A stretch of DNA of 62,876 nucleotides, taken from NCBI RefSeq assembly GCF_004010195.1, contig NC_057718.1, positions 61,420,301 to 61,483,176 on the forward strand, read 5' to 3'. The translations under genes were made by a program, and so were the position numbers. The notes beneath the pieces are model-generated. The model saw only the letters and a program-made list of their open reading frames with translations. It did no database searches and had not been told where the DNA came from. This DNA is from Chiloscyllium plagiosum (taxonomy: Eukaryota). This document shows, in pieces, positions 1,699-62,843 of this stretch (positions are counted from its first letter, which is position 1; each line of letters opens with the position of its first letter).

Positions 1699-1790
1699 GA
1701 TTCCTGATGAAGGGCTTTTTGCGTGAAATGTCGATTCTCCTGCTCCTCGGATGCTGCCTGACCTGCTGTGCCTTTCAGCACCACACACTC
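1699..1790 (+). mobile_element. Solo PLE pLTR fragment with decayed hammerhead motif
   Basis: ctgatga-a-gggc-ttttt-gcgt-gaaatgtc followed by ggatgctgcctgacctgctgtg, as at the end of the GIY-YIG PLE fragment at 5494-5590. Confidence 0.75.
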
Positions 1791-2164
1791 CAAACAGATG
1801 AAGGCTGTTGAACTCTGAATCAAGGTTAGTTTGTGGGCACAGTTTTAAAATCCTCATTTACAAACATGCTAAAATCCTACTTAAACAATTATTCAGAGGG
1901 CAATTTGACCACTCAATTGGTAAATTCAAATCATAGGATGAACGTAAACCCTGGGGAGATGCCAGTTTCGACTCTTGACCAGGGTTGTATTGACTCTGAA
2001 GTAGGTGGCAGTTAGCTTAGCCTTACTGGTCAAGGAGGGCTATAGGCCAGCTCATAATCCCCCTCCTGATAAGAATGAAACTGCTTTCACATGGACATTG
2101 CATCAGAATCATAATCAAATAGTGGTATTTTTCAAGATGACCACTTTCCAGGTACCTTGTGGTG

Positions 2165-2416
2165 TTTATCCCCAGACCCATCCCCACTAACCTTATTCCC
2201 TGTAACCCTGCATATCCCATGACTAATCCACCTAGCCTGCACAATTTAGCACAGCCAATCCACCTAACCTGTACATCTTTGGACTGTGGGAGGAAACCCA
2301 TGCAGACACAGGGAGAACGTGCCCACTCCCTACAGACAGTCATCCAAGATGGAATTAAACCCATGTCGCTGGAGCTGTGAGGCAGCAGTGCTAACCCCTG
2401 AGCTATCTTGCCACCT
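2165..2416 (-). mobile_element. HE1-type tRNA-derived V-SINE (older copy)
   Basis: Clearly similar to the copies at 6271 and 9611 (ctttggactgtgggaggaaacc...ctgtgaggcagcagtgctaac). Confidence 0.85.
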
Positions 2417-4854
2417 CTATGACCATCCCATACTGTTGTGGGATGTGAAACCAGACTTTAAGGCCCAGAATTGGGACACAACTACCGTATTGTTCTTAGA
2501 TGTCAAGAAGGTTTACTTCATGATGGCAATAACTAATTATTTTGATCAGGGATAATCTTTACAAACTTTAAAGAACTGATACAGCTACATCTGCTCCCTC
2601 CAAAAACTAGAAGACAACTTCCTGTCTCCACCTACAGATTGTGGCATCAATAGAATGGGTGTAGCCAATGTAACATGACATTAGCCCTTTCAGAAGCATT
2701 ACATTATACAACAATAGACTGCACATACTTACTAGGTTAGGCTCAAGCATAATATATTGGCTGTTCATTGAGTTGTAAGGTGGAAACTAGTGCCTGAACC
2801 TAGTGGAAGTCAGTGTCTTCAGCAGAGGTTAGAAAAGGGGAAATATTTCTTATGACAAAAACATACTTTGATCTGGAATATGTTTGAATTCCTCCAGTTG
2901 TGTGTCTGCAGGGAACAAGTTCTGATAGTGGTAATAGGGGAGAAATGAATTGTAGTTGGACTTTTGCTAAACTGCTCAAGTATGTTCGCTTCTGTTAGAA
3001 TTGTGTTTGTTAGGAACTCCAGACAGCAAGGGGTTTCAGGTTCAGGATCATGCTCATATGGAGCCAGAATTTGAGAGCAGTACTGCAGAATTTTTTATCA
3101 CAAGGCAGCAGTGATAATGACCTTAACCTTACTTTATTTTCTAATCAACCTGTTCAGAGATATTCCCCTGGTCCACATGTTGGGACATTACCATTACTCC
3201 AAGAGCATTTTTGCAGACACTTATGGTCTGATTTTAACTCTGATCAACTGGTCAGTTACCAAGATATTGAGCAGCTAAAAGAAGGGCAGTATCTTAGTCC
3301 ATTCAAATCCTCTGCCTTCCTGCAGGAACTCATTTTAATTGGCTGGTTTTAACAGGTAAAAGAGATATTTGCTTGAAGGAGTAGACCACTGCTTTAAATA
3401 TGCAGAAATATTCAGCAATATCAGTTGGGCTAAACTGCAATTTTAACAAGGCATTGCATCTTCCTCATTAGGCTATGCTGGTGGCAAGTCAATCCTGGAT
3501 AGTAGAGTTTACAAAATGAAATGTTTCCTCTGGCTAGAAGTGTTCCTTTAGGAAAGAAAGTTGGAGCCTCTTTCGCCTTGATTTGCCTTCTCACTATTGA
3601 CCACAATGTCCTCCCCATCTTTTAGATCATCATGGGACAAACCTATTAAAATTTCCACTCTCTGCGTCCACATGAAATTGCATTGCTATACACTAGGGCG
3701 ACATCGATTTTTCTTACACCCAATGTTGTGGAGATACAATAACAAGGAATCAAATGGATAGTGTATTGTCATTTCTATATGTGTTTTGAGTACTTTTATG
3801 TTTATAGAGAGGCAAGTACTCTGTCTTATCTCAAATAACAGATAATATCCAGGAAGTAGTGCGGCAAAGGAAGAAAGCCAACTAGAACAACTTCCAAAAC
3901 TATTTCCAGCCTAGGACTTCACAAGTTGCACTGAAAAGTCTCTCTAAATTGTTTAGGAGTCACTTCTGAGAATTCAACAGCATCATAAAATCGGACTGCT
4001 TTCCTGTTGAATGGGTGATATCATTGAATGAACTGACTCTCCTGCACAGCACACAAGTTATCTACCTGGCACATTTTGGTTGCTTTGGCCAGAACATTAA
4101 ACATTAAGTTCTAACTCCTCTGCCTGTAAAAATCAGCAGGTCACTGAGTGAAAATTGAGCTGGTCAACCTTTTGCTCAATTCTATTTGCGTCAACATACT
4201 TCCTGGGGCTTTGAGCTAGGTGGCCAAGCTATACCTTGAATCAGGTGCAAATATCAAAGAACCCAAGCAAATCAGTGTCAACCATGAACATTCCATTCAG
4301 TAAAACCTGCCAACAAAAGCAGGAAGGTAAGTGTTGAAATTTTGTTTGAAGGGATAGTAAGTGCAGGTGAGATTGACTTCCCTGCCACCTGATATTGGAC
4401 TGACTGCAAGCCTGTGGGCTATAATAGGGCACCTTTTCAGAACTGGTAACTTACCAGATGCATGTTACTGAGGCCTGGCACTCAGAATGGCCTGGGTTTG
4501 CTACTGTGGCAACGCTGTCGCACATAAATACTTTATGAACACATATGGTACATAGTGAAAGATAAATCAGTAGTGTCAGGAGGAGACGGTAGGAATGTTA
4601 AGCGCCAATAACCAGTGAAAAGCTGTTGAAGAGGAAACAAACCCTTCAAGTGTTTCAGTCATGGTGCAAGGAGATCTCTTGATGTTAAATATTCTTGTGG
4701 CTCTAAAGAATTTTGCACATAATTTTCACTGGTTGCTCTCAGCAGGCTACGCTAATCTCAATGTCAACACAAGAGAACTGTTCATTCAAATAGGTGTCCA
4801 TGATGGCATTATCAGCTGCACTGTTCTTTTACATATCAACTAGACTGTACAGAC

Positions 4855-5590
4855 CCCACCAGAGATATATTTCCCTCCCCATCTCTATCCGCTTTCCCTA
4901 AATACCGTTCCCTCTGCGACTACTTTGTCAGGTCCACGCCACCTAACAATCCACCCTCCCCTCCCGGCACCTTCCCCTGCCACTGCAGGAATTGAAAAAC
5001 CATGCACCCACACCTCCCCCCAAGGCCACAAAGGAGCATTCCACATTCATCAAAGTTTCACCTGCACATCCACCAATGTCATGTACTATATCCATTGCTC
5101 CCGATGCGGTCTCCTCTACATTGGGGAGACAGAACACCTACTTACAGAGCACTTCAGGGAACATCTTCAGAACACCTGCACAATCAATCCCACTACCCCA
5201 TGGCCGAACACTAACTCCCTCTCATTCTGCTGAGGGCATGGGGGTCCTGGACCTCCTCTATCGGCACTCCCTCACCACCTGACGCCTGGAGGAAGAATGC
5301 CTCATCGTCCGCCTTGGGATCCTCCAACCCCATGGCATCAATCTAGATCTTCCTTCCCACCTATCTGCGCCACCCTCCTCTCCGACCTATCACCTTTACC
5401 CCACCTCCATCCACCTATTGCACTCTCGGCTACCTTCACCCCAGACCCACCCCCCTTTCCATTTATCTCTCCAACCCCGAGGCTCCCAGCCTCATTCCTG
5501 ATGAAGGGCTTTTGCCCAAAACGTTGATTTTCCTGCTCCTCGGATGCTGCCTGACCTGCTGTGCCTTTCCAACAACCCACTCTTGACTGT
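4855..5590 (+). mobile_element. 5'-truncated Penelope-like element (GIY-YIG region plus pLTR/HHR)
   Basis: FTCTSTNVMYYIHCSRCGLLYIGET...FREH GIY-YIG motif in ORF 4925-5233; ctgatga-a-gggcttttgccc-aaaacgtt at 5498-5525. Confidence 0.88.
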
Positions 5591-6179: not shown

Positions 6180-6615
6180 TAGTGTAGAACTAAAAGTGTG
6201 TTGCATTGTATGAAATGGAGTCCTTCCAATGAGATGTTAATCAGAGACCCTGAGATTTAGGAATAAATCTGTGGCAGCACGGTGGCACAGTGGTTAGCAC
6301 TGCTGCCTTACAGCGCCAATGACCCGGGTTCAATTCCCAACTCAGGCGACTGACTGTGTGGAGTTTGTACATTCTCCCAGTGTCTGCTTGGGTTTCCTCC
6401 GGGTGCTCCGGTTTCCTCCCACAGTCCAAAAATGTGCAGGTTAGGTGAATTGGCCATGCTAAATTGCCCGTAGTGTTAGGTGAAGGGGTAAATGTAGGGG
6501 AATGGATCTGGGTGGGTTGCGCTTCGGCGGGTCGGTGTGGACCTATTGGGCCGAAGGGCCTGTTTCCACACTAAGTAATCTAATCTAAAACCCCTCTGAG
6601 ATGTTGGTAGATGGT
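6180..6615 (+). mobile_element. Ancient Deu-domain-like SINE relic interrupted by the HE1 SINE
   Basis: gtgtgttgcattgt...gagatgttaatcagagaccctg, resuming ccctctgagatg after the HE1; resembles the recalled SacSINE1/AmnSINE Deu domain. Confidence 0.35.
6271..6588 (+). mobile_element. Full-length young HE1-type V-SINE
   Basis: Pol III A box tggcacagtgg, B box ggttcaattccc, V-domain, CR1-like tail gggccgaagggcctgtttcc and (taatc)n end. Confidence 0.92.
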
Positions 6616-7855: not shown

Positions 7856-8349
7856 CCAACCTCACTCCTTTAGTCACTGGGATCATATTTCAACTGGAAT
7901 TTCAACCTTGTAGCCCTTCAGTTGGGTAATCAACTATAAGGGGAACAGAAACAAGTACAATCCAGTTTTTAACCAATATCCAAACTCACACACGAACATA
8001 TGCCTACACTTAAACCCATAGCTGTGTGCACTTACTGGTTGCAATCACGAAGCTGCAATTCAGAAGCATTGCTCATTGAACAATGAGGTCCATTCTGGAC
8101 CTTTGCATTGCTGAGCTCTGCAAACTGAGCACAGGCATACGGATGGAATCCAAGACTTCCCTGGCCTGAACAACTAAGTACCCTGTTAATAGGTTCCAAC
8201 TTCAGACCAAGACTTGGAATAACATTATGCTTAGTTTTATGTTCCTGTTTTTTTTTGTCTGTAACCCTATAAATTCAAAGTTTGTGCTAAGATTTGTAGC
8301 TCGGGTGCTCGTTGTTGTGGTTCTGTTCGCCGAACTGGAAGTTTTTGTT

Positions 8350-8389
8350 GCAAACGTTTCGTCCCCTGGCTAGGCGACATCATCAGTGC
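8350..8389 (-). ncRNA. Minimal type-I hammerhead ribozyme motif
   Basis: Exact reverse complement of 9049-9088. Confidence 0.8.
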
Positions 8390-9048
8390 TTGGGAGCCTC
8401 CTGCGAAGCGCTTCTTTGATGTTTCCTCCGGTTTTATAGTGGTCTGTCCCTGCCGCTTCCGGTTGTCAGTTTCAGCTGTCCGCTGTAGTGGTTGGTATAT
8501 TGGGTCCAGGTCGATGTGTTTGTTGATGGAGTTTGTGGATGAATGCCATGCCTCTAGGAATTCCCTGGCTGTTCTCTGTCTGGCTTGCCCTATGATAGTA
8601 GTGTTGTCCCAGTCGAATTCATGTTGCTTGTTGTCTGCGTGTGTGGCTACTAAGGATCGCTGTTCGTGTCGTTTCGTGGCTAGTTGATGTTCATGTATGC
8701 GGATTATTAGCTTTCTTCCTGTTTGTCCTATATAGTGTTTGTACTATACACTACTAATGTAGTGTACAAAATACTATGCAAGGACTGCACTAAACACTAT
8801 ATAGGACAGGCAACATGAATTCGACTGGGACAACACTACTATCATAGGGCAAGCCAGACAGAGAACAGCCAAGGAATTCCTAGAGGCATGGCATTCATCC
8901 ACAAACTCCATCAACAAACACATCGACCTGGACCCAATATACCAACCACTACAGCGGACAGCTGAAACTGACAACCGGAAGCGGCAGGGACAGACCACTC
9001 TAAACACTGGAGGAAACATCAAAGAAGCGCTTCGCAGGAGGCTCCCAA

Positions 9049-9088
9049 GCACTGATGATGTCGCCTAGCCAGGGGACGAAACGTTTGC
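9049..9088 (+). ncRNA. Minimal type-I hammerhead ribozyme motif
   Basis: GCA-CUGAUGA-U-GUCgCCU(agcc)AGGgGAC-GAAA-CG-UU-UGC: stem I GCA/UGC, stem II, loopless palindromic stem III (AAACGUUU). Confidence 0.8.
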
Positions 9089-9610
9089 AACAAAAACTTC
9101 CAGCTCGGCGAACAGAACCACAACAACCCTATAAATCTTCATCCTCAAGTAGGTGTCTGCCTCCCTTTAAAGGTAAAATTAGATTGAGCATTCCCGATTC
9201 TGACAGCTCTCTGAATGAAGAACTTTCTCTTCTAGCTCTAACTCTCTGCATCTCTTACAGCTACCATTCTTATAAATGCTGTAGAACCATACAACACAAC
9301 AAGTACTGAAACTATGCTTCCTGAGAATGTGATGATTTTTGTAAGTTGTTTAAAACCAGAAAGACTTGCTGCAATGATGACCAAGAGATGCCATTGTCAG
9401 TTACAAGTCACAAGTTGAGTTTGGATATCAGTTATAACCATTGATGTGCCATCGCAGGGTTTCATGTTAATGAATCTTCTACAACAGCCAATGACTTACC
9501 ACCAAGCTTGATGTCAATTAGTTTTACATTCCTAATGGTACCATGCATTAAGGGGTTGCCATTTGTAACTTCAGCAGAGAATTTGAACTGGCCAATCAGC
9601 CCATTGGTTA

Positions 9611-10129: not shown

Positions 10130-10222
10130 AATTAAAAAAACAAAAATTGCAGAAATTGCTCAGCAGATCAGACAGCATCAGAAGGGGGAGAAACAGTTAG
10201 CGTTTCCTATCATCAGAACCTG
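10130..10222 (-). mobile_element. Old PLE pLTR/HHR relic
   Basis: Minus strand gttctgatgatag-gaaacgctaac followed by gatgctgtctgatctgctgag. Confidence 0.45.
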
Positions 10223-11952: not shown

Positions 11953-14096
11953 ACCAGATTCCTCCCTGGGAAAATTGTGTTTACCAACACCATAGCGAGT
12001 GGTTAAAGAATGAAGGTAATGGTTGGTAATCCGCACAAGGTGAATGAATGCCAACTTTTCTGGGGCACTCTCAGGTTAATTCTTTGTATCAGTTCATGAG
12101 AGCTGCTTTTGTTGACAAAATCAGTGAACTAATTTATTAAATGACTATATAGTGAAGTTACATTCAATATAAATGCTACGGAACTGGAATTTTGTTTTCA
12201 CTGAAATGGATAAAAGAAATAATATCTTTAAACAGACAAGAACCAATTGGAAAATGAAAATTGCAGTCAGCTTTAATCAACATCACATTTTAAAAAATGT
12301 AAACCTGAAATAGTCCTAGTTTCCAAAAGCTTTTTTTCGCTATAAAGTTTTCTGTATTAATGTCAGTCCTACACTTCTGGCCTAGATCACAGACAGAGAC
12401 ATCAAGTACCAACCCCAGCTATTAAAACTTTGGTTAGTTGGATATTTCAGTTCTTTCAAGTTGTATCAAGGTATGAGATAGGGAGAGGTTCCATGGTAGA
12501 CACAGAACTCTACCACTTATGTTCTTGATATCTAATGCCCAGATTACATATGTTACCCTGACATACATGACATAAATAGTGGAATAAACTAGTTATTTAA
12601 TTGGCAACTTTAAAAATGCTGGATGCTACATTGGAGAATTATCATTGATAAGTATTTTCTCTGCTGTGTAGGAAACGACTATTCAAATAACATGACAAAC
12701 CTTAAACAAAAGCGAACAGCTTAAACTTTTGTTCACATTGGCTCCTGTCAATCAATGTGTAGTGAGGTGTGATTATTTCAGAAATTGGTCCTGAGTTATC
12801 TGCAGTCTATAACCTCTCGGTTGATTGATTGATTGACAGGTGACTATGTAAGTAATTTTTGGTTATGATTCATGGCAACATCTTAATAAATGACACTACA
12901 AGCTGATGATTTTCAGGTTCTGATTAATTTAAGAATATCTTTTTAATCATTATTTTCCAGTAATTCAGATTTATGATGCCAAACTGTTGAGTTTACTTAC
13001 AGAGTAAGGCTTATGAATTGTACTATGCAGGAAGATCGCATGCAAATTTGGCCTAATTTCTTTCATAATAACATTGGCCTGAATGAGCTTTGCACTGCCA
13101 GACTACCTGAGCACACAACAGGGGGCAGTGTGCAGTGTTTGCTGATAACATATAGTGTAACCAGCCACTCTTAAAGGACTGCCTTTACTGCCTTCCAAAG
13201 GTACACAAAGCCAACACACCGGGACGTCCCATCATGTCGGGCAATGGGACCCTATGTGAGAATCTCTCCGGCTATGTGGAAGGCATCTTGAAACCTCTTG
13301 TACCGGGGATCTCCAGCTTCTGTTGCGACACTACGGATTTCTTACAGAAACTCAGCACCAACGGACCAGTCGAACCGGGAACATTCATCGTCACAATGGA
13401 CGTTTCCTCACTTTACACCAGCATCCCCCATAATGATGGCATCATGGCAACAGCCTCAGTACTCAACACCAACAATTGCCCATCTCCAAACACCATCCTA
13501 CAACTCATCCGCTTTTATCCTTGATCACAACGTCTTCACCTTTGACAACCAGTTCTTCATCCAGACACACGGAACAGCCATGGGGACCAAATTTGCACCC
13601 CAATATGCCAACATTTTTATGCACAGGTTCGAACAAGACTTCTTCTCTATGCAGGATCTCCAACCAACATTGTACATCAGGTACATTGACGATATTTTCT
13701 TCCTCTGGACCCACGGCAAGGAGTCACTGATAAAACTACACAGTGACATCAACAAGTTTCATCCCACCATCAAACGCTTGACTGTCTGTCTCAGTCTTGG
13801 ATACATGCATCTCCATCAAGGATGGACACCTCAGCACCACACTCTACCACAAACAACCTCAATGCTACACTTCTCCAGCTTCCACCCAAAATATATTGAA
13901 ACAGCCATCCCCTATGGACAAGCCCTATGCATACACCGGATCTGCTCAGATGAGGAGGAACGTGACGGACACCTGGAAGTACTCAAGGATGCCCTCACAA
14001 GAACGGGGTACGATGCTCAACTCATCCACTGCCAGTTCCGACGTGCCACAGCAAGGAACCGTAATGACCTCCTCAGGAGACAGACACGGGCTGCAA

Positions 14097-14327
14097 NNNN
14101 NNNNNNNNNNNNNNNNNNNNNNNNNNNNNNNNNNNNNNNNNNNNNNNNNNNNNNNNNNNNNNNNNNNNNNNNNNNNNNNNNNNNNNNNNNNNNNNNNNNN
14201 NNNNNNNNNNNNNNNNNNNNNNNNNNNNNNNNNNNNNNNNNNNNNNNNNNNNNNNNNNNNNNNNNNNNNNNNNNNNNNNNNNNNNNNNNNNNNNNNNNNN
14301 NNNNNNNNNNNNNNNNNNNNNNNNNNN
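14097..14327. other. Assembly gap (231 N) flanked by a ~660 bp direct duplication
   Basis: 13435-14096 is repeated at 14328-14988. Confidence 0.97.
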
Positions 14328-15639
14328 GATGGCATCGCGGCAACAGCCTCAGTACTCAACACCAACAACTGCCAATCTCCAAAACCATCCTACAACTCAT
14401 CCGCTTTTATCCTTGATCACAACGTCTTCACCTTTGACAACCAGTTCTTCATCCAGACACATGGAACAGCCATGGGGACCAAATTTGCACCCCAATATGC
14501 CAACATTTTTATGCACAGGTTCGAACAAGACTTCTTCTCTATGCAGGATCTCCAACCAACATTATACATCAGGTACATTGGCGATATTTTCTTCCTCTGG
14601 ACCCACGGCGAGGAGTCACTGATAAAACTACACAGTGACATCAACAAGTTTCATCCCACCATCAAACTCTTGACTGTCTGTCTCAGTCTTGGACACATGC
14701 GTCTCCATCAAGGATGGACACATCAGCACCACACTCTACCACAAACAACTTCAATGCTACACTTCTCCAGCTTCCACCCAAAACATATTAAAACTGCCAT
14801 TCCCTATGGACAATCCCTATGCATACACCGGATCTGCTCAGATGAGGAGGAACGTGACGGACACCTGGAAGTACTCGAGGATGCCCTCACAAGAACGGGG
14901 TACGATGCTCAACTCATCCACTGCCAGTTCCGACGTGCCACAGCAAGGAACTGTAATGCCCTCCTCAGGAGACAGACATGTGCTGCAACTGACAGGGTAT
15001 CCTTCGTTGTTCAGTACTTCCCAGGAGCTGAAAACTTACGCCATGTTCTTCGTGACCTGCAACACATCAATGAGGATGAGCACCTCACCAAGACCTTCCC
15101 CACACCTCCACTATTTGCCTTTAAACAACCGCCAAACCTCAAACAGATCGTTGCTCATAGCAAGCTGCCCAGCTCTCAGTACAACTCCATACAACCCTGT
15201 CACGGTAGGCACTGCAAGACTTGTTAGAGTATGGACATAGATACCACCATTACACGTGGGGACACCTCCCACCTTGTACATGGCAGGTACTTATGTGACT
15301 CAGCCAACGTTGCCTACCTTATACATTGCAAGCAAGGATGCCCGGAGGCATGGTACATTGGGGAAACCGAGCAAAGGCTACGACTACAGATCACCGCACA
15401 ACAATCAACAGAAGTGTTCCTTCCCAGTTGGGGAACACTTCAGTGGTCCAGGCCATTCAGCCTTGGACCTCCAGGTGACCATCCTCCAAGTGGACTTCGG
15501 GATAGGCAGCAGAGAAAAGTAGCTGAGCAGAGGCTGATAGCTAAGTTCGGTACCCATAGGGAGGGCCTCAATTGGGACCTTGGGTTCATGTCACATTACA
15601 GGTGACCAGGTTATAGTCCAACAGGTTTAATTGGAAGCA

Positions 15640-15674
15640 CACTAGCTTTCGGAGCGACGCTCCTTCATCAGGTG
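15640..15674 (-). ncRNA. Minimal type-I hammerhead ribozyme motif
   Basis: Exact reverse complement of 16030-16064. Confidence 0.85.
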
Positions 15675-16029: not shown

Positions 16030-16064
16030 CACCTGATGAAGGAGCGTCGCTCCGAAAGCTAGTG
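16030..16064 (+). ncRNA. Minimal type-I hammerhead ribozyme motif
   Basis: CAC-CUGAUGA-A-GGAGC(guc)GCUCC-GAAA-GC-UA-GUG: stem I CAC/GUG, 5-bp stem II, palindromic AGCU stem III, predicted cleavage after CUA. Confidence 0.85.
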
Positions 16065-16169
16065 TGCTTCCAATTAAACCTGTTGGACTATAACCTGGTG
16101 TTGTGTGATTTTTAACTCTTAAAGGAGACCTTCATTCAGTGGAGACTGACTTCTGTAGGATCTGCATAA

Positions 16170-23925: not shown

Positions 23926-25904
23926 AGGAAACTGATTTTATATTTCATCTTTCTCTGATAGTAGCAAATATATATGAGCAGACTTTAACTTCCATCTGTT
24001 TCTTATACCTAAGAACTTACATGGACTAAAAGGGTTGTCATGGTTACCTGACTACAGATTGAGGCAAATCCAGGAGACATATGTAAAATAAGCAAAGCCA
24101 TCTGTATTGACACTGAAACCAGGTAACTGAGTCAGCATTAAGAAATTCACAACTCCTGTTTTAATTCACACTTGTATGATAATTTCACATATTGGACAAG
24201 AAATATTGCATGTGGTTTGTCAAACATGAAGTGACAATGAAGCTGGATTTGAAAATTCTCACATGAGCCCTATTTCAGCAGCTGCATTTGAGTAACAGCT
24301 GAGAGAAGGAATATATCTTGGAATACAGTACCTGGTAAAAAGAAAATTAACTAAGAACTCAAAGATATCAACAAACTCCACCAATCCTAAGTTTGCTAGT
24401 TAGTAATTCAACAACTGTGGCCTCAGGTTAAAACTCTAATACCTCAAGGACCTGAAAGATTGTGTAGCTTTTATTCTACTTATCCACACTAGGCACTTTC
24501 CCCTTTAACAATTTCCACTTGAGTGTGTTTGTTGTCCCTGTTCTTTTTTTGCTCAGGGTTAATAGGGTATTTTTTAATTCAAGGAGACCTTGTAAATAGC
24601 TTCTTCATTTTTATCTAGTTAACTACATTTTTTAATTTACATGTGATTTGGCTGCATGTTAACTAAAGGAGATATTTATTATGACTGACTGAGAGGAATT
24701 TACGCAAAAAGGAAATCAAATCACCTTCTCTCATCTGGTCGTAACACATTTGGGGTCTTGATCACAATATTCCCCAAGCGAAGATGCTGCAAATAGCACA
24801 AAGTCACACGGGTTGGAGCACAATCTTGTAATGCATCATGCCTGATAATCTTTCATTAATTAAATGGAGAATATTCCAACATATGCCTTTACAGATACGC
24901 TTTCTGAGCCACCTTTCTGATATCTACTGTGCCCAGTCGATCCAGTAAGTCTGACACAGGTTTGTAAAATTTTCTTCCTGTATGTTTATGACACCAGGTA
25001 AAATGAGGAAACAGAGGTAAAAGTTCACAATATGTGGGAACAGGAGAAGACAGTGGGTAATGTGGGAACATTTAAATTTTCAATTTGTTAATGTTACAGT
25101 GATGTCATATAAATAGCCTAACATTCACACTGTCAAGATCCTGGATGATTATCCCGAAATCCCCCACTGACTCAACCCAATTTAATGGGAAGGAGTTAAA
25201 TCAACATCATTAGCCACCGTGTTTTGAACGACTGCTAAGTGAACAGGCAATCTATTTTCAAGTCATGCTGGCTGTCAGGTTTCTAAAAAATTGTAAATGA
25301 AGGTGAAAATTAAATGGTGCCTCCAGCCTTAGCAGGTCATTGCGTTGAAGGTATGGCACGCCTTTGTTGGAATGGTTTGACAGACTGATACTGTGTGATA
25401 AAAGAGATTACCTTCCTACAGGCTTGATTAAAGTGTACAGAATTCAAAAGGTAAAACTGTAAACCTCATTTGTATATTAGAAACTTGCCATCAAATGAAA
25501 TTCTAGCTAAAGCAAGGTGATTTTTCATTTCTACAAGAAGAAAATATTCCACTTGCTGGAAACACAAAATAGGAACAGAAAGCATTGAAAATTCACAGCA
25601 GGGCTGGTTCTAGAGACTGAAATAAAAGTTAACATTCAGGTCTGTGACCTTTCAATAGAATTTATTCTGATATTAACTTGCAATCCTTTTTAGACATTTT
25701 TCTCAAACACTTTATTGTCCTATTTCTCTCATTTTAACTAATTCCCCCCAAGTTCTGAAAGAAACAAGTATCTTTAAATTAAAGTTTCATGTTATAATAT
25801 ATACAATGTGTTCACAGTGTGGAGAAATAACACATATATTGGGATTATTTGAAAGTAATTTAGTTAAACTGTACAGCAAACTAAAACTTACATGATAATT
25901 GGTG

Positions 25905-33373: not shown

Positions 33374-33478
33374 ATTCCTGATGAAGGGCTTATGCCTGAA
33401 ACATCGAGTCTCCCCCTCCTTGGATACTGCCTGACCTGCTGTGCTTTTCCAGTGCCACACTTTTTGACATGTGTGAAT
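33374..33478 (+). mobile_element. Solo PLE pLTR module with HHR motif
   Basis: ctgatga-a-gggc-ttat-gcct-gaaacatc; flanked by the direct repeat atgtgaatat / gtgtgaatat. Confidence 0.78.
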
Positions 33479-34067
33479 ATCTACCATCTTTTCCAAGCTA
33501 CTATCATCTCTGAAGAAGAATCTCTAGATTCAAAGTATTAACTTTGTCTTTCTCTCCACAGACACCTGCTGTATTTCTCAGCAGTTTCTGTTTCTGCTGC
33601 TGATTTCAAACATCCATGGTTTTCTCATTTTATCTTATTGTGCTGTGAGGATCACATCAAGATCCACCCACGAATCAAACTCCATTGCACATGAAGTATC
33701 CTCTCACTCTCAGCGTGAGAAGCCAATCACCATCAAAGGGGAGCATGACAACTGGATTTCAGCTAACCTGCAAATCCAAGAATCCTGAAGTCAACTTTCA
33801 ACAATCAATGTTCCACCATCTACTCGTTACAGATAACCCATACAGACGGATCCATATGTCTTTTAACTTTTATATTTTTCGATTCCCTTCTCATTTTAAC
33901 CTGTTTATGTGTTGTTTCAATACTATTCCTTCTCTCATTTGACTAATCAACTCACTCTTCTGTTAACTCAAGAAAGCATGGTTAAATTGGCTCCTGTTAA
34001 TACATATATGCATTAGGTCTGGGAGAATGGTACTCACAAGGGAATAATGACTCCTTTGTAAATTAAG

Positions 34068-38051: not shown

Positions 38052-38076
38052 GTAGCGGGGGGAGGAGACAAACTGG

Positions 38077-41845: not shown

Positions 41846-43060
41846 GATATTGTTGGTTATTTTATAGTTTTCCGATCTGAAGAATAGTTTCACACCCAAT
41901 TATTAACCTATATTTCCTCTTTACAGATACTGATAGACCTGTGTACCTAGACAGTTTCTATTTTTGTTTCAGCTTCCTAGCAGTTTTTTTTGTCTTTGTA
42001 TTTTAGAATACTGTGGGGGATTTGCTGAAACACCAGGCCAATGCACTACAGTTCCAACTCTTAACAAGATGGCTTTCAATCCAACTGAAATGAAAGTCGC
42101 ATCACTCTCATGGCTGATTAACGTCCGATGAGAAACGTTTGGACAACTCAACGCAGTCCCTCATGGAAGCAAAACCACAGATTATATGCAAAACATTTGC
42201 TCTTTAATTAAATAATTTCATTCTGAAAATACAGATGTAGAAATTGGGAAGTAAATTAGTGTACCTGGAAATCTCTTTTTGAATTTAAGAAGTAAGATAT
42301 ATGGCTGAAGCAGAACAGAAATTACTTCATTTGCATTCTTTACTTGAACTGTTTAGTTCTCAAATGCCTAATTTTTAGACACTAATTGGTCTTATAATGG
42401 GATCTGAGATTCACATTCATACTTTCAATGAGAAATACATTGGAGACCGTGGTGGTGAAAGATTTGCACTTGAATACTTAACTGTCACCAACAGCAAACA
42501 GAGTAAGATGTCAGCCAGCATGCAATGCCAATTTGATGGTAGTGCCACTTTTTACAAAAGCCACATGTCGACCAGCTGAAGTCCTGTATTAACCTCAGCT
42601 AAACATGATGTTAAAAAGCAGTGCTATTTAAAGGAATCATGAATGGCTCGCTGCTTAGTTCCTGAATTACTTCTGCAAAGTTTTGGTGCATCTCCATGCT
42701 TGTCTTAAATTTCAATAGTCTCCAGGAAATAATCTGGCGCATGTTGAAACACTTTATTGAGTTCAAACTGTGTGCTGAAATAACTTGTTTCTAGATATGA
42801 ATGGACTAATAGACCTTCATCGTGAAATTGAGGATGACTAGGAGAATGAGGAAAGGTCACATGGAGCAGGACAAGCTGCTGAGACAGGGAAGAGGAGGAG
42901 AGAGATTCTCAGTATGAAGTATTGAAGATGCAACCCTCTTATTTCAACTACGTGACGATCCAATGTCTCCGATATGGTTTGTTCAAGTGATGTTTGATTG
43001 AAGTCCACCAATTGTTGCATCTACAGCTACAAGCAAGCTGTGCAGGTGATCATGGCTCTT

Positions 43061-48486: not shown

Positions 48487-48941
48487 CCTCCATTGCCAAA
48501 CCCTAAACACCTGACCCCTTAAGGAAGAATGCCTCATTTTCTGCCTCGGCACCCTGCAACCACACAGGATTAATATGGATTTCACCAGTTTCCTCATTTC
48601 CCCTCCCTCCACCTTATCCCAGTCCCAAGCCTCCAACTTGGCATTGCCCTCTTGCCCTCTTATACATTGTCTTCCCCATCTATCCGCTCCACCATCCCTC
48701 TCCGACCTATCGCCTTCTCTCCCACCTTCATCTACCTATTGCATTCTCAGCTGCCTTTCCCCTAGCCAAACACCCCTCCTATTTATCTCTCAGCGTCCTG
48801 GCCCACAAGCCTCATTTCTGATGAAGGGCGTATGCCCGAAACATCGATTCTCCTGCTCCTCAGATGCTGCCTGACCTGCTGTGTATTTTCCAGCATCACA
48901 CTCTCAACTCTGATCTCCAGAATCTGCAGTCCTCGCTTTCT
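48487..48941 (+). mobile_element. PLE 3' end with HHR inserted into a CR1 fragment (48363-49014, minus)
   Basis: ctgatga-a-gggc-gtat-gccc-gaaacatc at 48818-48845; the CR1 resumes across the insertion at ccctg|tctac. Confidence 0.85.
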
Positions 48942-49679
48942 CCTGTCTACATGTGACACAAACGTCATAGAATTATGCACCTTGAACCCCTAGGTCTCTC
49001 TGTTTATAATACTCATGGTGCTATATGTAAGCCACATCTGTCTCGTTACAAAAATAGTAATCATTGGGGTAACCCTTGAGAATAGTATTGCAATCAATCA
49101 TGTCAAATTGCAGAAGGTGAGTTACAGCAGAAAGACTGCAAAGTTATCACTGCTTTTGGAGTATAAGATCACAGTCAAAATTATAATTTCATTGATTCTA
49201 ATTAGCAGCTATGATGGAGAACTGATTATAGATGTGCTTTTACTTGAGCAACCAGAGCAGAATACTCAGTGGATGAGATCTCAGCTGAGACTGCTTCTGA
49301 GCAACCTCATTGGATGTCACTGGAGTCTGAAGCTTTACATTGCTGGGTGTGCCAAAATAATCTTACACGCAAATTCAGCTTTTGAGTCAAGTGTCCAGCC
49401 AAAGGACTTCAGATTGGAAAAATAAAGTTGCTTTATTTCCTATTTGGCATCAATTTACCACTGAAGTCACACAGAAGTTACAAACACTTGAGAAAGGTTA
49501 TGAACATTTCAGTCATAGTGATGGGCAGTTTTGCATTTTGAGTTTAATGCATAGTGATTACATTATATGAGCACTACTGATGACATGTCAAAATAAAAAT
49601 TTCCTTGCTAATTTTGTTTGAAAGAATTAAAATAATCCAAAGTGGTAATGTTTCTTAAAAAAATACCAGGAAAATTAAA

Positions 49680-52557: not shown

Positions 52558-53267
52558 CTGGATAGGGGTCCGGTTTCACATCTTTTCCGGTTTCAGGGGA
52601 AGCTACTTGCAACCAGAAAAGATGCGAAACCTGCTGGTACTCCACCCACCTCCATCCAGGGCCCCAAACAGTCCTTCCAGGTGAGACAGAGTTCACCTGC
52701 CTCTCTTCCAACTGAGTTTACTGCATCAGGTGCTCCCAATGTAGTTTTGTCTACATCGGGGAGACCAAATGTAAACTTAGGGAATGGTTCACCGAGCATC
52801 TTAGCTAGGCCTGCAGGGGCCGACCGGACCTCCCTGTAACCACCCATTTTAATTCCTTTCCCCATCCCTTTCTGACATTACTATCCTTGGTCTTCTCCAT
52901 TGCCACAATGAACCAAACCACGAATTGGAGGAACACACCTCATCTTCCATCTGGGCCACCTACATTGAGTTCTCAATTTCAAATAACGTCCCTTCCCATC
53001 CTCTGACTCCCTTTCCAGCCCCTTCACCTCCCTTCCACTCCTTTCTGCCACCAACCGGATTCATTCCTCCCATTGACCAACCAGGTTATACCCTCTACCT
53101 GTCTTCACCTATCCCTACTTCACTACCCTACCCCCACCACTCCCTTTATCTGCACCTCCCCTTACATCCATCCCCAGTCCTGAAGAAGGGTTACACCCAA
53201 AACATTGACTTCTCCACCTCCTGATGCTGCCAGACTTGCTGTGTTCTTCCAGCCTCCTGCTTGTCAA
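52558..53267 (+). mobile_element. PLE 3' fragment (GIY-YIG plus HHR) with TSD
   Basis: VYCIRCSQC.FVYIGETK..L...F.EH; agtc-ctgaaga-a-gggt-tac-accc-aaaacatt-gact at 53176-53210; TSD ccatgtagac at 52548-52557 and 53268-53277. Confidence 0.88.
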
Positions 53268-54376: not shown

Positions 54377-55204
54377 TAGAACATGGAACATTACAGCGCA
54401 GTACAGGCCCTTCTGCCCTCAATTTTATGCCAACTTGTGGAACCAATCTGAAGCCTCTCTATCCTACACTATTCCATTTTCATCCACATGTTTATCCAAT
54501 GACCATATAAATGCCCTGAAACTTGTTGAGTCTACTATTCTTGCAAGCAGTGCGTTCTATGTCCCTACTACTTTCTGAGTAAAGAAACTATCTCTGATAT
54601 TTGTCCTATATCTACCACCCCTCAATTTATAGCTGTGTACCCTCATGATAGCCATCACCATCCAAGGAAAAAGGCACTCACTGTCCGACCTATCTAAACA
54701 TCTGATTATCTTGTATGTCTCAATTAAGTCACATCTCAACCTTCTTCTCTCTAACGAAAACAGCCTCAAATCCCTCAGCCTTTCCTCATAACACCTTCCC
54801 TGCATACCAGGCAACATCCTCGTAAATCTCCTCTGAATCTTTTCCAAAGCTTCCACATCCTTCCTATAATGCCATGACCAGAACTGTATGCAATACTCCG
54901 AGTGCAGCTGCACCAGAGTTTTGTATAGCTGCAGCATGACACCATGGTTCCGAAACTCAATCCCTCTACCAATAAAACCTAACACACTATATGCCTTCTT
55001 AACAACCCTATCAACTCAGGTGGCAACTTTCAGGGATCTATGTTCATGAACACCAAGATCTCTCTGCTCTTCTGCACCACCAAGAATCCTACCATTAGCT
55101 CAGTACTCTTTATTCCCCTTACTCCTTCCAAACTGAATCATCTCACACTTTTCTGCATTAAACTCCATTTGCCACCTCTCAGACCAGCTTTGCAACTTAT
55201 TTAT
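54377..55204 (-). mobile_element. 5'-truncated CR1 LINE
   Basis: WQMEFNAEKCE, LQLYKTLV, RRRLRCDLIETYKII. Confidence 0.93.
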
Positions 55205-55440: not shown

Positions 55441-55626
55441 ACCAGGTTATAGTCCAACAGCATTATTTGGAAGCAATAGCTTTTGGAACACTGCTCCTTC
55501 ATCAGGTAGTTGGTTGTCCGGTGCTCCGAAAGCTAGTGCTTCCAAATAATCCTGTTGGACTATAACCTGGTGCAGTATGATTTTTAACTTTGTACACTCC
55601 AGTCCAACATCGGCATCTCCAAATCA
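55441..55626. mobile_element. Mini palindromic PLE pLTR element with HHR remnants
   Basis: Inverted arms accaggttatagtccaacag / ctgttggactataacctggt, minus-strand HHR, 3' half of a plus-strand HHR (gctccgaaagctagtg), full tail; same family as 15606-16117. Confidence 0.88.
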
Positions 55627-56179
55627 CCACTTCCTTTGGATTGTGCCTCATACTGAAGTTAACGTGCCTGTGTAGGTCACAGTCGAATAACCATTCTTTA
55701 CTTACCTCATGTTGCAGGCAAAGACCCTCTTTCAAACGGAGTACTGGCAGCTAGTCAAGAGTAAACAGGACAACCAAATGACTCTCTCTCACCCTAATTG
55801 CTGAAATTCAATCTTGGTCAAAAGGAATCGGAACTATAGAATCTCAATCAATCTGTAAAACTAAGGATCGTGAAACTGACTATTCAGTTATGATGTCTGG
55901 TCTGCTGGTGACCAGCACTGCAACAGCCACAACATTCAACTATCCTCACTTCATTAACTATTTAGAGACTGATTTGATTACCTGTGTAACTTTTACTCTT
56001 TAGAACTCACTTCTTTTTTCTAAGCTGTGCATATATTAGCTGTGTTACTAATTTTTCTCATGTTTGAGGAATTAGTGAACTGCATTATTAATTATCCACA
56101 ATGGATGGGATTTATTTTTAAACTCACCTTATTGTAACCAAGTGAAGGGACAGGTGAGTAAAGAAGGAGAGTCAGATCA

Positions 56180-56277
56180 TAAACAAGAACAGAAATTTCT
56201 GGAAAAGCTCAGCAGGCCTGGCAGTATCTGTGGTGAGAAATTAGAGTTCACGTTTTGGGTTCAGTGGCCCTTCTTCA
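56180..56277 (-). mobile_element. ~100 bp ORF-less pLTR/HHR module with TSD
   Basis: Minus ctgaaga-a-gggcc-actg-aaccc-aaaacgtg; TSD gaaggagagt(c/t)agatca at 56163-56179 and 56278-56294. Confidence 0.78.
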
Positions 56278-59049: not shown

Positions 59050-60300
59050 ACGTACAAATTAGGGGCAGCAATAGGCAATTCTGTTCTTCAAGTCTGTTCA
59101 ACCATTCAATGAGAACATGACGGATCTGTGTTTCAAATTCCACATTCCCATCAGAACACTATACATTGCAAATTTCACATTGCCCTTGACAACCTTTGAT
59201 TCCCTTATCTAGCAGGAATCCACCTCTGCCTTAAAAATATTTTGTGATCCCTACTTCCATTTCCTTATAGGGGAGATCCCCTCACTCCTGTCCTGCTTGG
59301 CTGACCAGTTCTAGACTGACCCACAAGAGGAAACATTTTTTCCAAGCCCCCCCTAGTCAAGCTTATTCAGGATCTTATACATTGCCATAGGTTCAACCTC
59401 TCACTCTTCTAAACTCCACTTTAAATAAAAAGCTCAACCTGCCCACTCTTTCCTCTTAACACAGTCTACACATTCTACATTTCAGTCTAGTAAACTGCTT
59501 CTGAGTTACCTCTAATGCATCCTTCCTTAAGGAGACCAAAACTGCATGGAATATTTGAGATGTGACTCACTCATGTCTGTATAAGTGAACCATAACGAAC
59601 TCACATTTATGTTCAATGCATTATATTCAGCATTTCAAGATGGTGCAAGAGCATGCCGACACTTTGAGTATAACACACAAAAAACACTTTTCACTGTATT
59701 TTTATATACATGTGACAATAAATATAAAACAAAATTCCTCTCATAATAAGGGATAACATTCTAATAACCTTTTTAATGACTTGTTGTGCCTGCACATCAA
59801 CTAATTGTGTGTCATTCATCAGAACACCAAGATCCCTCTGCACCTGAGATTCTAGCAGTCATTCTCCATTAGATATGGTCTTTGTTTTAATTCTTCCTGC
59901 CACTATGAACAATTTTACATTTTCAGACATTGCACTCTACTCACCACATTTGTGCCCACTGACTCAACCTCGTCCTTGATATGTCATCTTCACAACCTGT
60001 CCTATGTATCTTTGTGTTATTTGCAAATCTAGACACCGTGTCTTCAATACCCCATATAAGTCATTGGTATCAATCATAAAATGTTGAGGGAGCAAGCTAA
60101 CATCTTGATTCTAGATAACTCTTCATCAGAGCCGACTCAGCTCTGACGAAGTTGTCTGGACTTAAAAGGTTAGATTGTTCTCTCTCTGTGGATGCTTTCT
60201 AACCTGCTGTGATCTCCAGCAGTTGTTGTTTTCAGTATCGATTCCAGCATCTGCAGTAATTTGCACCTCCATAAAATGTTGAGGGCCTACACAGATCTCA
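59050..60300 (-). mobile_element. Old CR1 LINE fragment (interrupted)
   Basis: Antisense tail at 59060-59120, ggagaccaaaactgca (QFWSP), tttgcaaatct (FA). Confidence 0.75.
60091..60269. mobile_element. 179-bp ORF-less element with two back-to-back HHR motifs and a perfect 16-bp TSD
   Basis: TSD cataaaatgttgaggg at 60075-60090 and 60270-60285; minus gct-ctgatga..ttagc, plus gct-ctgacga..ttaga, then pLTR tail gattccagcatctgcagt. Confidence 0.82.
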
Positions 60301-60866
60301 GTAAGAATCCAGCAGCTAAAAATAATGCAAAGACAGTGTTGTGGAGAAAATGGATGCCTCTACAGTACTACTTATAGATCAGATGCATGGGTGTTTCCCC
60401 TATTCTCAAAGCTCCTTTGTTAAGACCCTCCAACCTCATGTCGTTTTGCAGTATAGTGGATTAGCACCGCCATTCCATATCAATTCCCCATCTCCTTAGG
60501 GTCAGACATTGAACCTAGGATCAGGCCTATCTGTATTTAATCACTGTACCAGGGCCTAAAATGGTAGATTGAAGCCCAAACCCATTCCTGAATCTGCATC
60601 AAGAAAGACCCTGTTGAAGTCAGAAATCAGAACACCCAGGATCAAGCTCCATGTGTTTGGACTTGCCCTAGGATAGGTACTTGGCTTTCAACCTAATTTA
60701 GGAATGGAAACCAACTCTTAGGAATAAACACCTCTTGCTCCCTGTGATTGGACCAACCATCAAATGCTTCTTGCTTCAGTGCTGCATTTGAGACAGGGGG
60801 ATTAACAAGGCTGAAAGATGCATGATATGGAGCACAGAAGGAAACCTAGACTTACTCAGTCAGTAA

Positions 60867-61221
60867 TTAGAATCATAGAAACTCTACAGTGCAGAAAGAG
60901 GTCATTCAGCCCATTTAGTCTGCACCAATCCATAGAAGAGAATCCCACACAGAAATAAACCCCACATTATCCCTGTAATTCCACATTTTCCATGGCTAAC
61001 CCATCTAACCTGCACACCCCTGGATACTACAGGGCAATTTAGCATAACCAATCCACCTAACCAACAGATCTTTGGACTGTGAAATGAAACTGGTGCACCC
61101 AGTGGAAATCCACAGAGATTTGGGGCGAATGTGTAAGCTCCACTCAGACAGCCACCCAAGGCTGGACTAGAATCCAGGTCACTGGTACTGTGAGGTAGCA
61201 GTGTTAACTACTGAGCCACCC
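60867..61221 (-). mobile_element. HE1-type V-SINE
   Basis: Head ggtggctcagtagttaacactgctacctcacag, V-domain, tail ending ctatgattcta. Confidence 0.85.
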
Positions 61222-61254
61222 AATAATACTAGCATGCCCAAATACATTTAAACT

Positions 61255-62843
61255 GCTATCATTAATGTTTCAAAAGTAACAATGAGAAGGATTTGAGGAA
61301 CTGGTATTAAATCGACATGGTACAGTTAGGGCAATTGAGAGTTACAAGTCAGCCAGGAAAGACCTAAAGAGAGATCTAAGACGAGCAAGGAGGGGACATG
61401 TTGGCAGATAGGATCAGAGAAAACCCTGATAGGTTATAAGTGATAAAAGAATGATGAGAGTAAGATTAGGGTCGAGAGTGTGATGCTGGAAAAGCACAGC
61501 AGGTCAGGCAGCATTCGAGGAGAATCGATGTTTCAGGCAAAAGCCCGTCATCGTGATAGGAATAATTTGATTAGGGACAGTCAACATCATTTTGTGAAGG
61601 GCAAGTCGTGCCTCATAAACCTGATTGAGTTCTTTGAGAAGGTGGCCAAACAGGTGGATGAGAGTCAAGATGTTGACGTGGTATACATGGATTTCATTAA
61701 GGCGTTTGATAAAACTCCCCATGGTAGGCTACTGCACAACATACGGAGGCATGGGATTGAGAGTGCTTTCGCAGTTTGGATCAGAAATTGGCTAGCCGAA
61801 AGAAGACGGGGGTGGTGGTTAATGGGAAATGCTCATCCTGGAGTTCAGTTACTAGTGGTGTAACTAGTGGTGAACTGTTTTGGGTCCAATACTGTTTGGC
61901 ATTTTTATAAATGATCTGAATGAGGGCGTAGAAGGATGGTTTAGTAAATTTGCGGACGATACTAAGATTGGTACAGTTGTGGACAGTGCTGAAGGATGTT
62001 GTAGGTTACAGAGGGACATACATAAGCTGCAGAGCTGAGCTGAGAGGTGGTAAATGGAATTTAATGCAGAGAAATGTGAGGTGATTCACTTTGGAAGGAC
62101 TAACAGGAATACAGAGTACTGGGTGAATGGTAAGATTCCTGGTAGTGTGGATGCGCAGAGAGATCTCTGTGTCCACGTACATAGTTCCCTCAAAGGTGCC
62201 ATCCATGTTAATCGGGTTGTTAAGAAGGCATATGGTGTGTTAGCTTTTATTGGTAAAAGGATTGAGTTTCGGAGCCACAAGGTCATGCTATAGCTGTACA
62301 AAACTCTAGTACAGCCACACTTGAAGTATTGCATAAAGTTCTGGTCATGGCATTGTAGGAAGGATGTGGAGATTTTGGAAGGGTTCAGAGGAGATTTACG
62401 AGGATGTTGCCTGGTATGGAGGGAAGGTGTTATGAGGAAAGGCTGAGGGATTTGAGGCTGTTTTTGTTAGAGAGAAGAAGGTTGAGACGTGACTTAATTG
62501 AGACATACAAGATAATCAGACGTTTAGATAGGTCGGACAGTGAGTGCCTTTTTCCTTGGATGGTGATGGCTATCATGAGGGTACACAGCTATAAATTGAG
62601 GGGTGGTAGATATAGGACAAATATCAGAGATAGTTTCTTTACTCAGAAAGTAGTAGGGACATAGAACGCACTGCTTGCAAGAATAGTAGACTCACCAAGT
62701 TTCATGGTATTTAAATGGTCATTGGATAAACATGTGGATGAAAATGGAATAGTGTAGGATAGAGAGGCTTCAGATTGGTTCCACAAGTTGGCATAAAATT
62801 GAGGGCAGAAGGGCCTGTACTGCGCTGTAATGTTCCATGTTCT
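61255..62843 (+). mobile_element. 5'-truncated CR1 LINE containing a minus-strand pLTR/HHR module at ~61472-61552
   Basis: SQHHFVKGKSCLINLIEFF, YMDFIKAFDK, KFADDTK, tail tgttccatgttcta. Confidence 0.93.

Follow-up and report, generated by a model that had tools for sequence, protein, structure and literature searches.

Minimal hammerhead motifs and their relics in Penelope-like element insertions of a shark genomic window

Introduction

The locus examined here, a window of 62,876 nucleotides (the whole stretch of DNA that was analysed), was described in a first-pass annotation as a dense, covarying repertoire of minimal hammerhead ribozymes (HHRs) from at least four Penelope-like element (PLE) families; it raises the question of whether these motifs are working ribozymes or the residue of insertions. 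Hammerheads of this class in the pLTRs of metazoan PLEs were described in 2014 (Cervera & de la Pena, PMC4209133). The evidence makes it very probable that the window holds minimal type-I hammerheads of the PLE 3' end or pLTR (Neptune-like and Poseidon-like), left in about 15 mostly 5'-truncated insertions (Table 1), and that they are inert passengers at these loci.

Results and Discussion

Hammerhead motifs and their state of preservation

The positions listed in the first-pass annotation were right, its minus-strand numbers being the low ends of the motifs, and all 14 sites are hammerhead-derived. A window scan found the CUGANGA core exact at 13 of them (plus strand: 1704, 5498, 9052, 16033, 33378, 48818, 53180 and 60143; minus strand: 8386, 15671, 55505, 56278 and 60129), the first core being broken at about 61552 (minus). 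CUGANGA and GAAA are both exact at seven of the 14; the other seven are decayed copies from the same families or from related ones. Four sites (8386 minus, 9052 plus, 15671 minus, 16033 plus) passed a strict test for minimal hammerheads, defined as CUGANGA and GAAA, a stem II of at least 3 bp, a Watson-Crick palindrome at 15.2/16.2, H17 other than G, and a stem I of at least 3 bp. This strict tier gave four matches in the window and one in total over 300 dinucleotide shuffles; a relaxed tier that allowed G12>A gave 10 matches against a shuffle mean of 0.09.

The proposed minimal type-I architecture is borne out: helix III is without a loop and palindromic at 15.2/16.2 (ACGU in family B, at 5498 and at 56278; AGCU in family C), and in all 13 listed sites tabulated an extra A or U follows A9 and the G10.1-C11.1 pair is G-C or a CpG-derived G-U. 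All of the stems initially named were found, both for stem II (GGGC/GCCC, GUC.CCU/AGG.GAC, GGAGC/GCUCC, GGGU/ACCC) and for stem I (GCA/UGC, CAC/GUG, AGUC/GACU, GCU/AGC). The available text of PMC4209133 describes the same type-I motifs with no helix III loop, an extra nucleotide after A9, G10.1-C11.1 and a palindromic 15.2/16.2, as well as genomes with several families that differ by compensatory changes, copies from truncated PLEs that mostly stand alone, and opposite-strand pairs 100-700 bp apart; compared with the motifs in that text, the stems of the window are short (stem II 4-6 bp, stem I 3-4 bp).

The word "repertoire" finds no support here: in 10 of the 14 listed copies a core or stem is broken, in large part by CpG decay. 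The catalytic G12 is lost (G12>A) at six sites (5498, 53180, 55505, 56278, 60129, 60143), the palindrome is decayed to ACAU, AUGU or AGGU at seven of the 14 (to ACAU at 33378, 48818, 53180 and 61552), stem II is broken at 1704 and 60143, and H17 is G at 56278. Five further copies were absent from the earlier list: two decayed ones at 10216 (minus) and 33510 (plus; HMM E of about 2e-6 and 6e-6), a half copy at about 55519 (plus) that begins inside stem II, and weak copies at about 25572-25664 (minus, E 0.02) and 41877 (plus, E 0.03). The density, first given as one motif per 5 kb, is therefore 17-19 relics (one per about 3.5 kb) but no more than four intact motifs (one per about 16 kb), stemming from two insertion events. 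A covariance-model match at 18009 (E 0.066) was taken as chance, its second core being absent; a covariance model built without family C scored the intact C copies at E 0.07 only, level with this probable chance match.

Table 1. Element parts and hammerhead-derived copies along the window.
Feature	Positions	Strand	Remarks
Family A 93-nt insert, decayed minimal HHR (C3 1704, stem II broken) and 3' end	1700..1792	+	flanking duplication imperfect only
Family A 5'-truncated PLE: GIY-YIG remnant 4825-5317, pyrimidine-rich 3' region, decayed HHR (C3 5498, G12>A)	4825..5590	+	
Family B (Poseidon-like) head-to-head inverted insertion	8275..9124	.	12-bp TSD at 8263/9125; tail of about 37 nt, minus copy only
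Family B intact minimal HHR (C3 8386, predicted cut after 8353)	8350..8389	-	directly past GIY-YIG frame 8740-8435
Family B intact minimal HHR (C3 9052, predicted cut after 9085)	9049..9088	+	ATG starts at A9, stem II head
D-type copy, decayed, stem II deleted	10132..10222	-	HMM
Neptune-like RT/GIY-YIG frame, 5'-truncated, frameshifted	13179..15605	+	assembly gap 14097-14327
Family C intact minimal HHR (C3 15671) in inverted 3' end (about 15605-15851)	15640..15674	-	
Family C intact minimal HHR (C3 16033, predicted cut after 16061)	16030..16064	+	
Family C poly(A) signal: ATTAAA 16073-16078 (AATAAA in other copies)	16073..16113	+	GU/U-rich element below
D-type copy, weak, heavily decayed	25572..25664	-	E 0.02 HMM; E 0.7 covariance model
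Family A 96-nt insert, starts 2 nt above C3 (33378), palindrome broken	33376..33471	+	9-bp TSD
D-type copy, decayed	33504..33604	+	HMM
D-type copy, weak, heavily decayed	41877..41944	+	E 0.034
Family A copy with 3' region and long tail; HHR C3 48818, palindrome broken	48487..48945	+	
Family E 5'-truncated PLE: endonuclease remnant 52587-52934, decayed HHR (C3 53180, G12>A)	52558..53267	+	10-bp TSD
Family C-type 187-nt inverted mini-insert, long tail: minus HHR (C3 55505, G12>A), plus half-HHR starting in stem II	55441..55627	.	
Family D1 104-nt insert; G12>A, H17=G	56173..56276	-	11-bp TSD overlaps first core bases
Family D2 179-nt head-to-head mini-insert, two decayed HHRs (C3 60129 minus, 60143 plus)	60091..60269	.	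16-bp TSD
Family A 97-nt insert adjoining LINE-like sequence; first core interrupted, palindrome broken	61472..61568	-	8-bp flanking duplication

Penelope-like origin of the insertions

The suggested origin from PLE pLTRs or 3' ends is confirmed by RT and GIY-YIG remnants, TSDs, inverted pairs and one-sided tails, and the "at least four" families became five or six. In tblastn searches, PLE protein remnants lay directly upstream of the HHRs at 5498, 8386, 9052 and 53180, and also within the TSD-bounded insertion holding 15671 and 16033; a 12-bp TSD at 13167/16115 joins the RT/GIY-YIG frame and the family C pair into one insertion. For families A, B, C and E, tblastn and TSDs place the HHR at the 3' end of an element with RT and GIY-YIG, with Pfam scores of both domains under the cut-off (E 0.074 for the GIY-YIG remnant at 4825-5317). 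Beside the D-type and short family A inserts the searches turned up no PLE coding remnant; shared 3' sequence, together with TSDs, assigns them to PLEs, and such sequence is all that places the D-type inserts at the 3' end of an element with RT and GIY-YIG. Of the 14 intervals tested, 7 are flanked by exact duplications of 8-16 bp; duplications of at least 11 bp occur in 0.1% of 19,697 random pairs. The window holds four inverted pairs with a tail on one arm only, a PLE signature described in the available text of PMC8557442 and PMC11167929. RT relatives in other sharks are 65-69% identical, and the PLE endonuclease is 86-87% identical to proteins labelled Chiloscyllium punctatum and Hemiscyllium ocellatum; this identity supports a carpet-shark-like host.

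Family C appears Neptune-like by its motifs and best matches: C-x4-CxxC stands at the end of its frame 13782-15227 and also in P0001, P0003 and P0004, comparable to the Zn-finger-like linker motif between RT and GIY-YIG in the Neptune clade, for which the available text likewise describes inverted 5'-truncated copies with a one-sided tail (Craig et al., 2021, PMC8557442). Family B, whose RT is absent from the window, is probably Poseidon-like, as a relative without the linker motif (P0057) and an ATG position like that of the Anolis Poseidon element PAc suggest. According to the portions of the PAc study available (Frangieh et al., 2024, PMC11167929), in both the ATG sits at the stem II head and the cut lies about 28 nt downstream in family B and 26 nt in PAc, and both have two alternative 3' ends (about 37 nt apart, the tail, in family B) and inserts that derive from uncut RNA; in contrast to PAc, a full-length family B element is absent from the window.

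In keeping with a clustering of 5' ends at the HHR edge in this window, the start of six short A and D motifs (1704, 33378, 56278, 60129, 60143, 61552) lies no further than about 10-15 nt from C3, in contrast to three long copies, and none of the 11 tail-HMM matches at E<0.05 lacked HHR-derived sequence upstream. The inserts of about 100 nt that start at the hammerhead 5' edge may mark the template RNA's 5' end, either its start or a splice junction; clustering of 5' ends at this edge was not confirmed in family C, where depth shows a steady climb and the presence of subfamilies confounds the picture. Metagenome contigs yielded three distant fragments (29-31% identity) for a shark PLE protein, with the hammerhead pattern absent, and a family-A-like pattern in viral contigs (28 loci), on inspection mostly without stems, added nothing.

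Covariation among families and decay after insertion

The claim of covariation between families was upheld by permutation and shuffle tests on stems I and II. Within six family representatives, 33 of 36 pairs form, against a mean of 22.7 across families (720 permutations, P=0.006, an optimistic value since the representatives are partly related). In an alignment of eight copies, both family C rows having been left out of 10, 85.9% of stem cells pair and nine cells are changed on both sides, values that none of 500 shuffles reached; slid-register controls pair at 46% or less, and for the measure "pairs with a change on both sides" separation was only at the level of 35 in 500 shuffles. The constraint that this covariation reflects acted on the ancestral elements when they were active and not on the present copies.

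Within families, decay after insertion was CpG-driven. Among family A copies 11 of 40 CpG bases are changed, compared with 26 of 402 others (P=1e-4, one doubtful CA/TG column pair being counted as non-CpG). In family C, G12>A has a frequency of 12.3% in one DNA run, compared with 9.5-13.8% at four other CpG positions, these being the best-supported rows of a variant table with 61 others; G12 is being lost much as the CpGs around it are, so there is no sign of selection once a copy has inserted.

Folding context, cleavage and the family C poly(A) site

The four intact motifs belong to two inverted insertions and lie head-to-head on opposite strands; therefore, none of them has a family member on the same strand within the window, and the palindromes of the two families (ACGU and AGCU) differ and cannot pair with each other. 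RNA folding of the inverted pairs left the HHR completely base-paired with its own antisense copy, as each motif would be in read-through RNA of these insertions.

The high abundance anticipated for these motifs was also found: for family C, 61,910 contigs aligned on 375 nt. Its RNA is sense-strand, polyadenylated and abundant, with 450+542 poly(A) loose ends among 3,439 reads; these ends place a poly(A) site in use about 30 nt below the cut site, poly(A) being added behind 16090-16093. Depth is flat across the predicted cut, with no pile of ends, in one poly(A) RNA run whose organism label differs from the best DNA sources and whose library cannot hold 5' cleavage products, so that partial cleavage is possible. 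No direct report of PLE polyadenylation was found in a literature search covering few subscription journals. It is a long shot, yet conceivable, that the family C end forms a two-part RNA cassette in very many copies, a hammerhead lying about 30 nt upstream of a poly(A) site in actual use, in which dimer pairing or the element protein would switch on the ribozyme, with loss of the poly(A) tail by element RNAs as well as by host RNAs adopting the site, a genome-wide conditional decay switch.

Alternative explanations

A chance pattern or repeat by-product without hammerhead ancestry has a vanishingly small probability. CTGANGA alone occurs 52 times in the window, an Rfam search returned no hammerhead family at E<=10 (six chance-level matches; the curated closed-stem-III model was unmatched), and most copies fail the full descriptor; against this, strict matches stand far above shuffles, the stems covary across unrelated families, and the PLE 3'-end position is the published one, so that shuffle, permutation and alignment covariation tests refute the chance reading. 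It is also very improbable that the motifs are non-LTR retrozymes, which are defined by tandem units each with an HHR, or a separate short non-autonomous element, instead of truncated PLEs. Several inserts measure just 93-187 nt and start no more than a few bases from C3, and the accessible part of a recent preprint reports retrozymes from one chondrichthyan genome, with type-I HHRs akin to those of PLE pLTRs (bioRxiv 10.64898/2026.07.22.740005); unlike such retrozymes, the window has no HHR-holding tandem array (TRF), the short family A inserts have matching longer copies in the window, one of them with an endonuclease remnant, and tails and inversions are PLE signatures.

It is distinctly unlikely that the intact copies work as ribozymes in shark cells and cleave RNA of the element or the host as trans-dimers or with protein help (a family C cut would remove the poly(A) tail added about 30 nt downstream). 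Four motifs are perfect, the sheer size of family C raises the chance of trans pairing, its polyadenylated sense RNA is plentiful, and a Poseidon HHR was protein-assisted in vitro (PMC11167929, available text). On the other side, the 4-bp palindrome duplex is predicted to be weak (-1.7 and -2.5 kcal/mol), with two-copy folds favouring other pairings; family C reads span the cut without a pile of ends; G12 decays like a neutral CpG; PMC11167929 found no reads that end at its HHR site; and just one of nine Xenopus dimers cleaved, according to the accessible part of bioRxiv 10.64898/2026.07.22.740005. The reading as PLE-derived passengers is preferred: in active ancestral elements, the motif would have cut element RNA only when two same-family copies paired through the 4-nt palindrome, or with the element protein, and the RNA copied into the present insertions was probably uncut, because every insert spans the cut site. 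The copies at these loci are most likely inert because 10 of 14 are broken and the four intact ones sit in inverted pairs whose read-through RNA would form a long hairpin.

Significance

No direct report of shark PLE hammerheads was found in a search covering few subscription journals, and sharks are unnamed in the main text and searchable supplement file of PMC4209133. The class being known since 2014, the value of these observations is incremental; they extend PLE hammerheads to sharks. The genome-wide motif counts in the available text of that study are about 4,000 for coelacanth and 9,000 for Xenopus, in contrast to four strict motifs in this 63-kb window alone, and copy numbers may far exceed the published frog and coelacanth counts. 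Families of such great size make it possible to ask cleanly whether the ribozyme makes a difference once a copy has inserted, and a first look here indicates that it does not; the used poly(A) site beside the family C motif suggests that such elements may supply transcript ends in sharks.

Motif Inventory and Families

A pattern search of the window located an exact CUGANGA at 13 of the 14 hammerhead ribozyme (HHR) sites listed in the first-pass annotation (numbered here by the position of C3); near 61552(-) the first core is interrupted. Both cores are exact at seven sites, and four (8386-, 9052+, 15671-, and 16033+) passed a strict descriptor of the minimal type-I hammerhead of Penelope-like elements (PLEs; stem II of ≥3 bp, palindromic A-N-N-U, H17 not G, stem I of ≥3 bp), which found one match summed over 300 dinucleotide-preserving shuffles. 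A relaxed tier gave 10 matches in the window versus a shuffle mean of 0.09. Further copies came from profile searches: two decayed ones (10216- and 33510+), a half copy (~55519+), and two weak ones (~25640- and 41877+). On the reversed window, used as a control, these searches returned nothing below E 0.2, and no Rfam hammerhead model matches the window. The dense population initially proposed is real as relics, approximately one per 3.5 kb, but intact motifs occur just once per 16 kb. A CUGAUGA at 18009-18048 (+) with a short hairpin behind it (model E 0.066) lacks a second core and was taken as chance.

Features identified in the window
Feature	Position	Strand	Basis or remark
Family A	1704, 5498, 33378, 48818, 61552		self-comparison, stem table
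Family B	8386, 9052		self-comparison, stem table
Family C	15671, 16033, 55505		self-comparison, stem table
Family D1	56278		self-comparison, stem table
Family D2	60129/60143		self-comparison, stem table
Family E	53180		self-comparison, stem table
Family C used poly(A) site region	16073-16113	+	X19 poly(A) loose ends
Pyrimidine-rich tract (70-80%)	5460-5497, 48780-48817, 53140-53179		AG 2-8 nt above first core
LINE-like RT elements, near-full or partial	38056-41092 (+); 10654-11951, 20272-21589, 43061-43503, 51494-52375		
SINE-like family, dispersed, ~320 bp	2242-2415, 6273-6592(-), 9606-9921, 61026-61228		copies 69-90% alike
LTR retrotransposon remnant	28780-29154	-	integrase zinc-binding domain PF17921, E 2e-7

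Judged by their similar 3' segments, families A, D, and E are related. The stem sequences quoted in the annotation are present in the window, and the covariation it proposed between families is borne out: of 36 stem I/II pairs, 33 form when both strands come from one family, versus 22.7 with strands swapped between families (six family representatives, 720 permutations, P = 0.006). In an eight-row alignment of A, B, D, and E (two C rows, shifted by MAFFT, were left out), 85.9% of cells pair and nine are altered on both sides, values that none of 500 shuffles equalled; slid-structure controls reached ≤46% pairing. For "pairs with a change on both sides", 35 of the 500 shuffles equalled the observed value. 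The covariance model of these rows is mostly sequence-driven, since it scores the intact C copies at just E 0.07.

Penelope-Like Context

Mapping 72 protein matches back to the window placed PLE coding remnants at 4825-5317, 8273-8740(-), 8732-9131, 13159-15602, and 52587-52934, each directly upstream of an HHR or sharing one insertion with it; these frames are broken, and Pfam scores them below cut-off. Other sharks have RT/GIY-YIG-type proteins that are 65-69% identical to the frame at 14328-15224, and the frame at 8270-8743(-) is 86-87% identical to proteins carrying the labels Chiloscyllium punctatum and Hemiscyllium ocellatum, consistent with a carpet shark host. Exact flanking duplications of 8-16 bp occur at seven of 14 intervals tested (chance level for random pairs, 0.1% at ≥11 bp and ~5% at ≥8 bp). 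One 12-bp duplication brackets an insertion (13179-16114) that includes the family C inverted pair together with the Neptune-like frame, and thus ties this motif to a coding element; a second brackets the family B inverted pair (8275-9124). In each of these pairs just one arm has a tail and the other stops earlier, matching the one-sided tail that is a PLE signature in the accessible text of PMC8557442 and PMC11167929. HHR retrozymes are reported from one chondrichthyan genome in the available part of a 2026 preprint (bioRxiv 10.64898/2026.07.22.740005); since no tandem array holding a motif was found in the window, the present elements are not retrozymes.

Every defining feature of PLE minimal hammerheads that was examined is present, with self-cleavage putative. 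Covarying families within a genome, solo copies, and opposite-strand pairs were already known from the 2014 study of these motifs (PMC4209133, accessible portions); its main text and searchable supplement file do not name sharks, and a literature search for shark PLE hammerheads found no paper.

The inverted 3' end at 15605 abuts the Neptune-like frame exactly at its stop codon, inside the single TSD-bounded insertion, and the two family C copies on the minus strand (15605, 55441) stop at nearly the same place, 5-8 nt below the poly(A) site. An RT segment appears twice (13435-14096 and 14328-14988; 96%, 638/662) around a 231-N gap; these are probably two haplotypes left overlapping in the assembly and not a tandem. 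Shark isoforms of EPN2, MAP3K7, NT5DC1, and CUEDC2 as modelled by NCBI (labelled P0026, P0059, P0062, and P0066) have PLE-derived ends, possibly through exonisation or annotation artefact. Among other repeats, an RVT_1 match (E 2e-13) lies at 39198-40004, and a LINE-like 860-bp inverted duplication (54345-55204 and 62018-62876, ~7 kb apart) is 91% identical, with 507 bp at 97%.

Decay After Insertion

G12, the catalytic core base, is changed to A in six of the 14 listed copies, the palindrome is broken to ACAU in four, and stem II is lost at 1704. The family A motif contains three CpGs (11.1/12, 15.2/16.2, and 17/1.1); over five copies, 11 of 40 CpG bases have changed versus 26 of 402 other bases (P = 1e-4). 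On the family C plus copy, 61,910 contigs of the DNA run X15 were placed; their summed depth of 4.5-7 million over the motif versus 32 over unique flank is not a copy number, and shows that family C is very large. A single contig spans the right junction of the insertion (5 differences in 117), so the DNA-run organism shares it. Among the best-supported variants listed for X15, G12>A reaches 12.3%, compared to 9.5-13.8% at four other CpG positions; the catalytic base of family C is therefore unprotected after insertion.

RNA Ends and Predicted Cleavage

In the RNA run X19, poly(A) follows 16090 in 450 reads and 16093 in 542 (992 loose ends), and depth drops from 1647 to 634. The window has ATTAAA at 16073-16078, 29% of X19 reads have AATAAA, and the site has no genomic A-run and a GU/U-rich stretch downstream; these features suggest genuine polyadenylation ~30 nt downstream of the predicted hammerhead cut, at the family level and in one sample. 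Hexamers of this type were not found in the element sequence of other families, and a literature search for PLE polyadenylation of this kind found no paper. RNA ending here would lack the tail and so could not template copies ending at or beyond 16114.

At the other end, six short A/D motifs begin within ~10-15 nt of C3, none below the cut, and such inserts may mark the 5' end of the RNA; the family C depth profile gave no confirmation of 5' ends at the HHR edge. In long A and E copies, a pyrimidine-rich tract and an AG lie shortly above the core, resembling a splice acceptor at helix I. Drosophila Penelope has a 75-nt intron 46 nt below its start site (PMC2377424), and the end of this intron maps to helix I (PMC4209133; accessible text of both).

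According to the accessible parts of PMC4209133 and the review PMC6765202, PLE minimal hammerheads lack helix III, need a second copy to pair via the palindrome, and have low in vitro activity; one Poseidon motif required the protein of its element to cleave, and was dispensable for insertion (PMC11167929, in part). The 4-bp palindrome duplex contributes -1.7 (ACGU) or -2.5 (AGCU) kcal/mol, and two-copy folds favour other pairings. The intact motifs are divergently oriented on opposite strands, the folded read-through RNA pairs each base for base with its own antisense copy, and the B and C palindromes cannot pair mutually. Every insert spans the cut site, which suggests that the template RNA was uncut. 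X19 depth is flat over the predicted cut 16061/16062 (1504 to 1590, main strand), and no pile of read ends there was reported among 3,439 reads placed from ~2% of this poly(A) single-cell run, whose organism label differs from that of the best DNA holders of family C; partial cutting is compatible with these data, since 5' cleavage products are absent from a poly(A) library. On the best reading, the motifs would work, or would once have worked, as ribozymes in active elements, and the copies at these loci would be inert.
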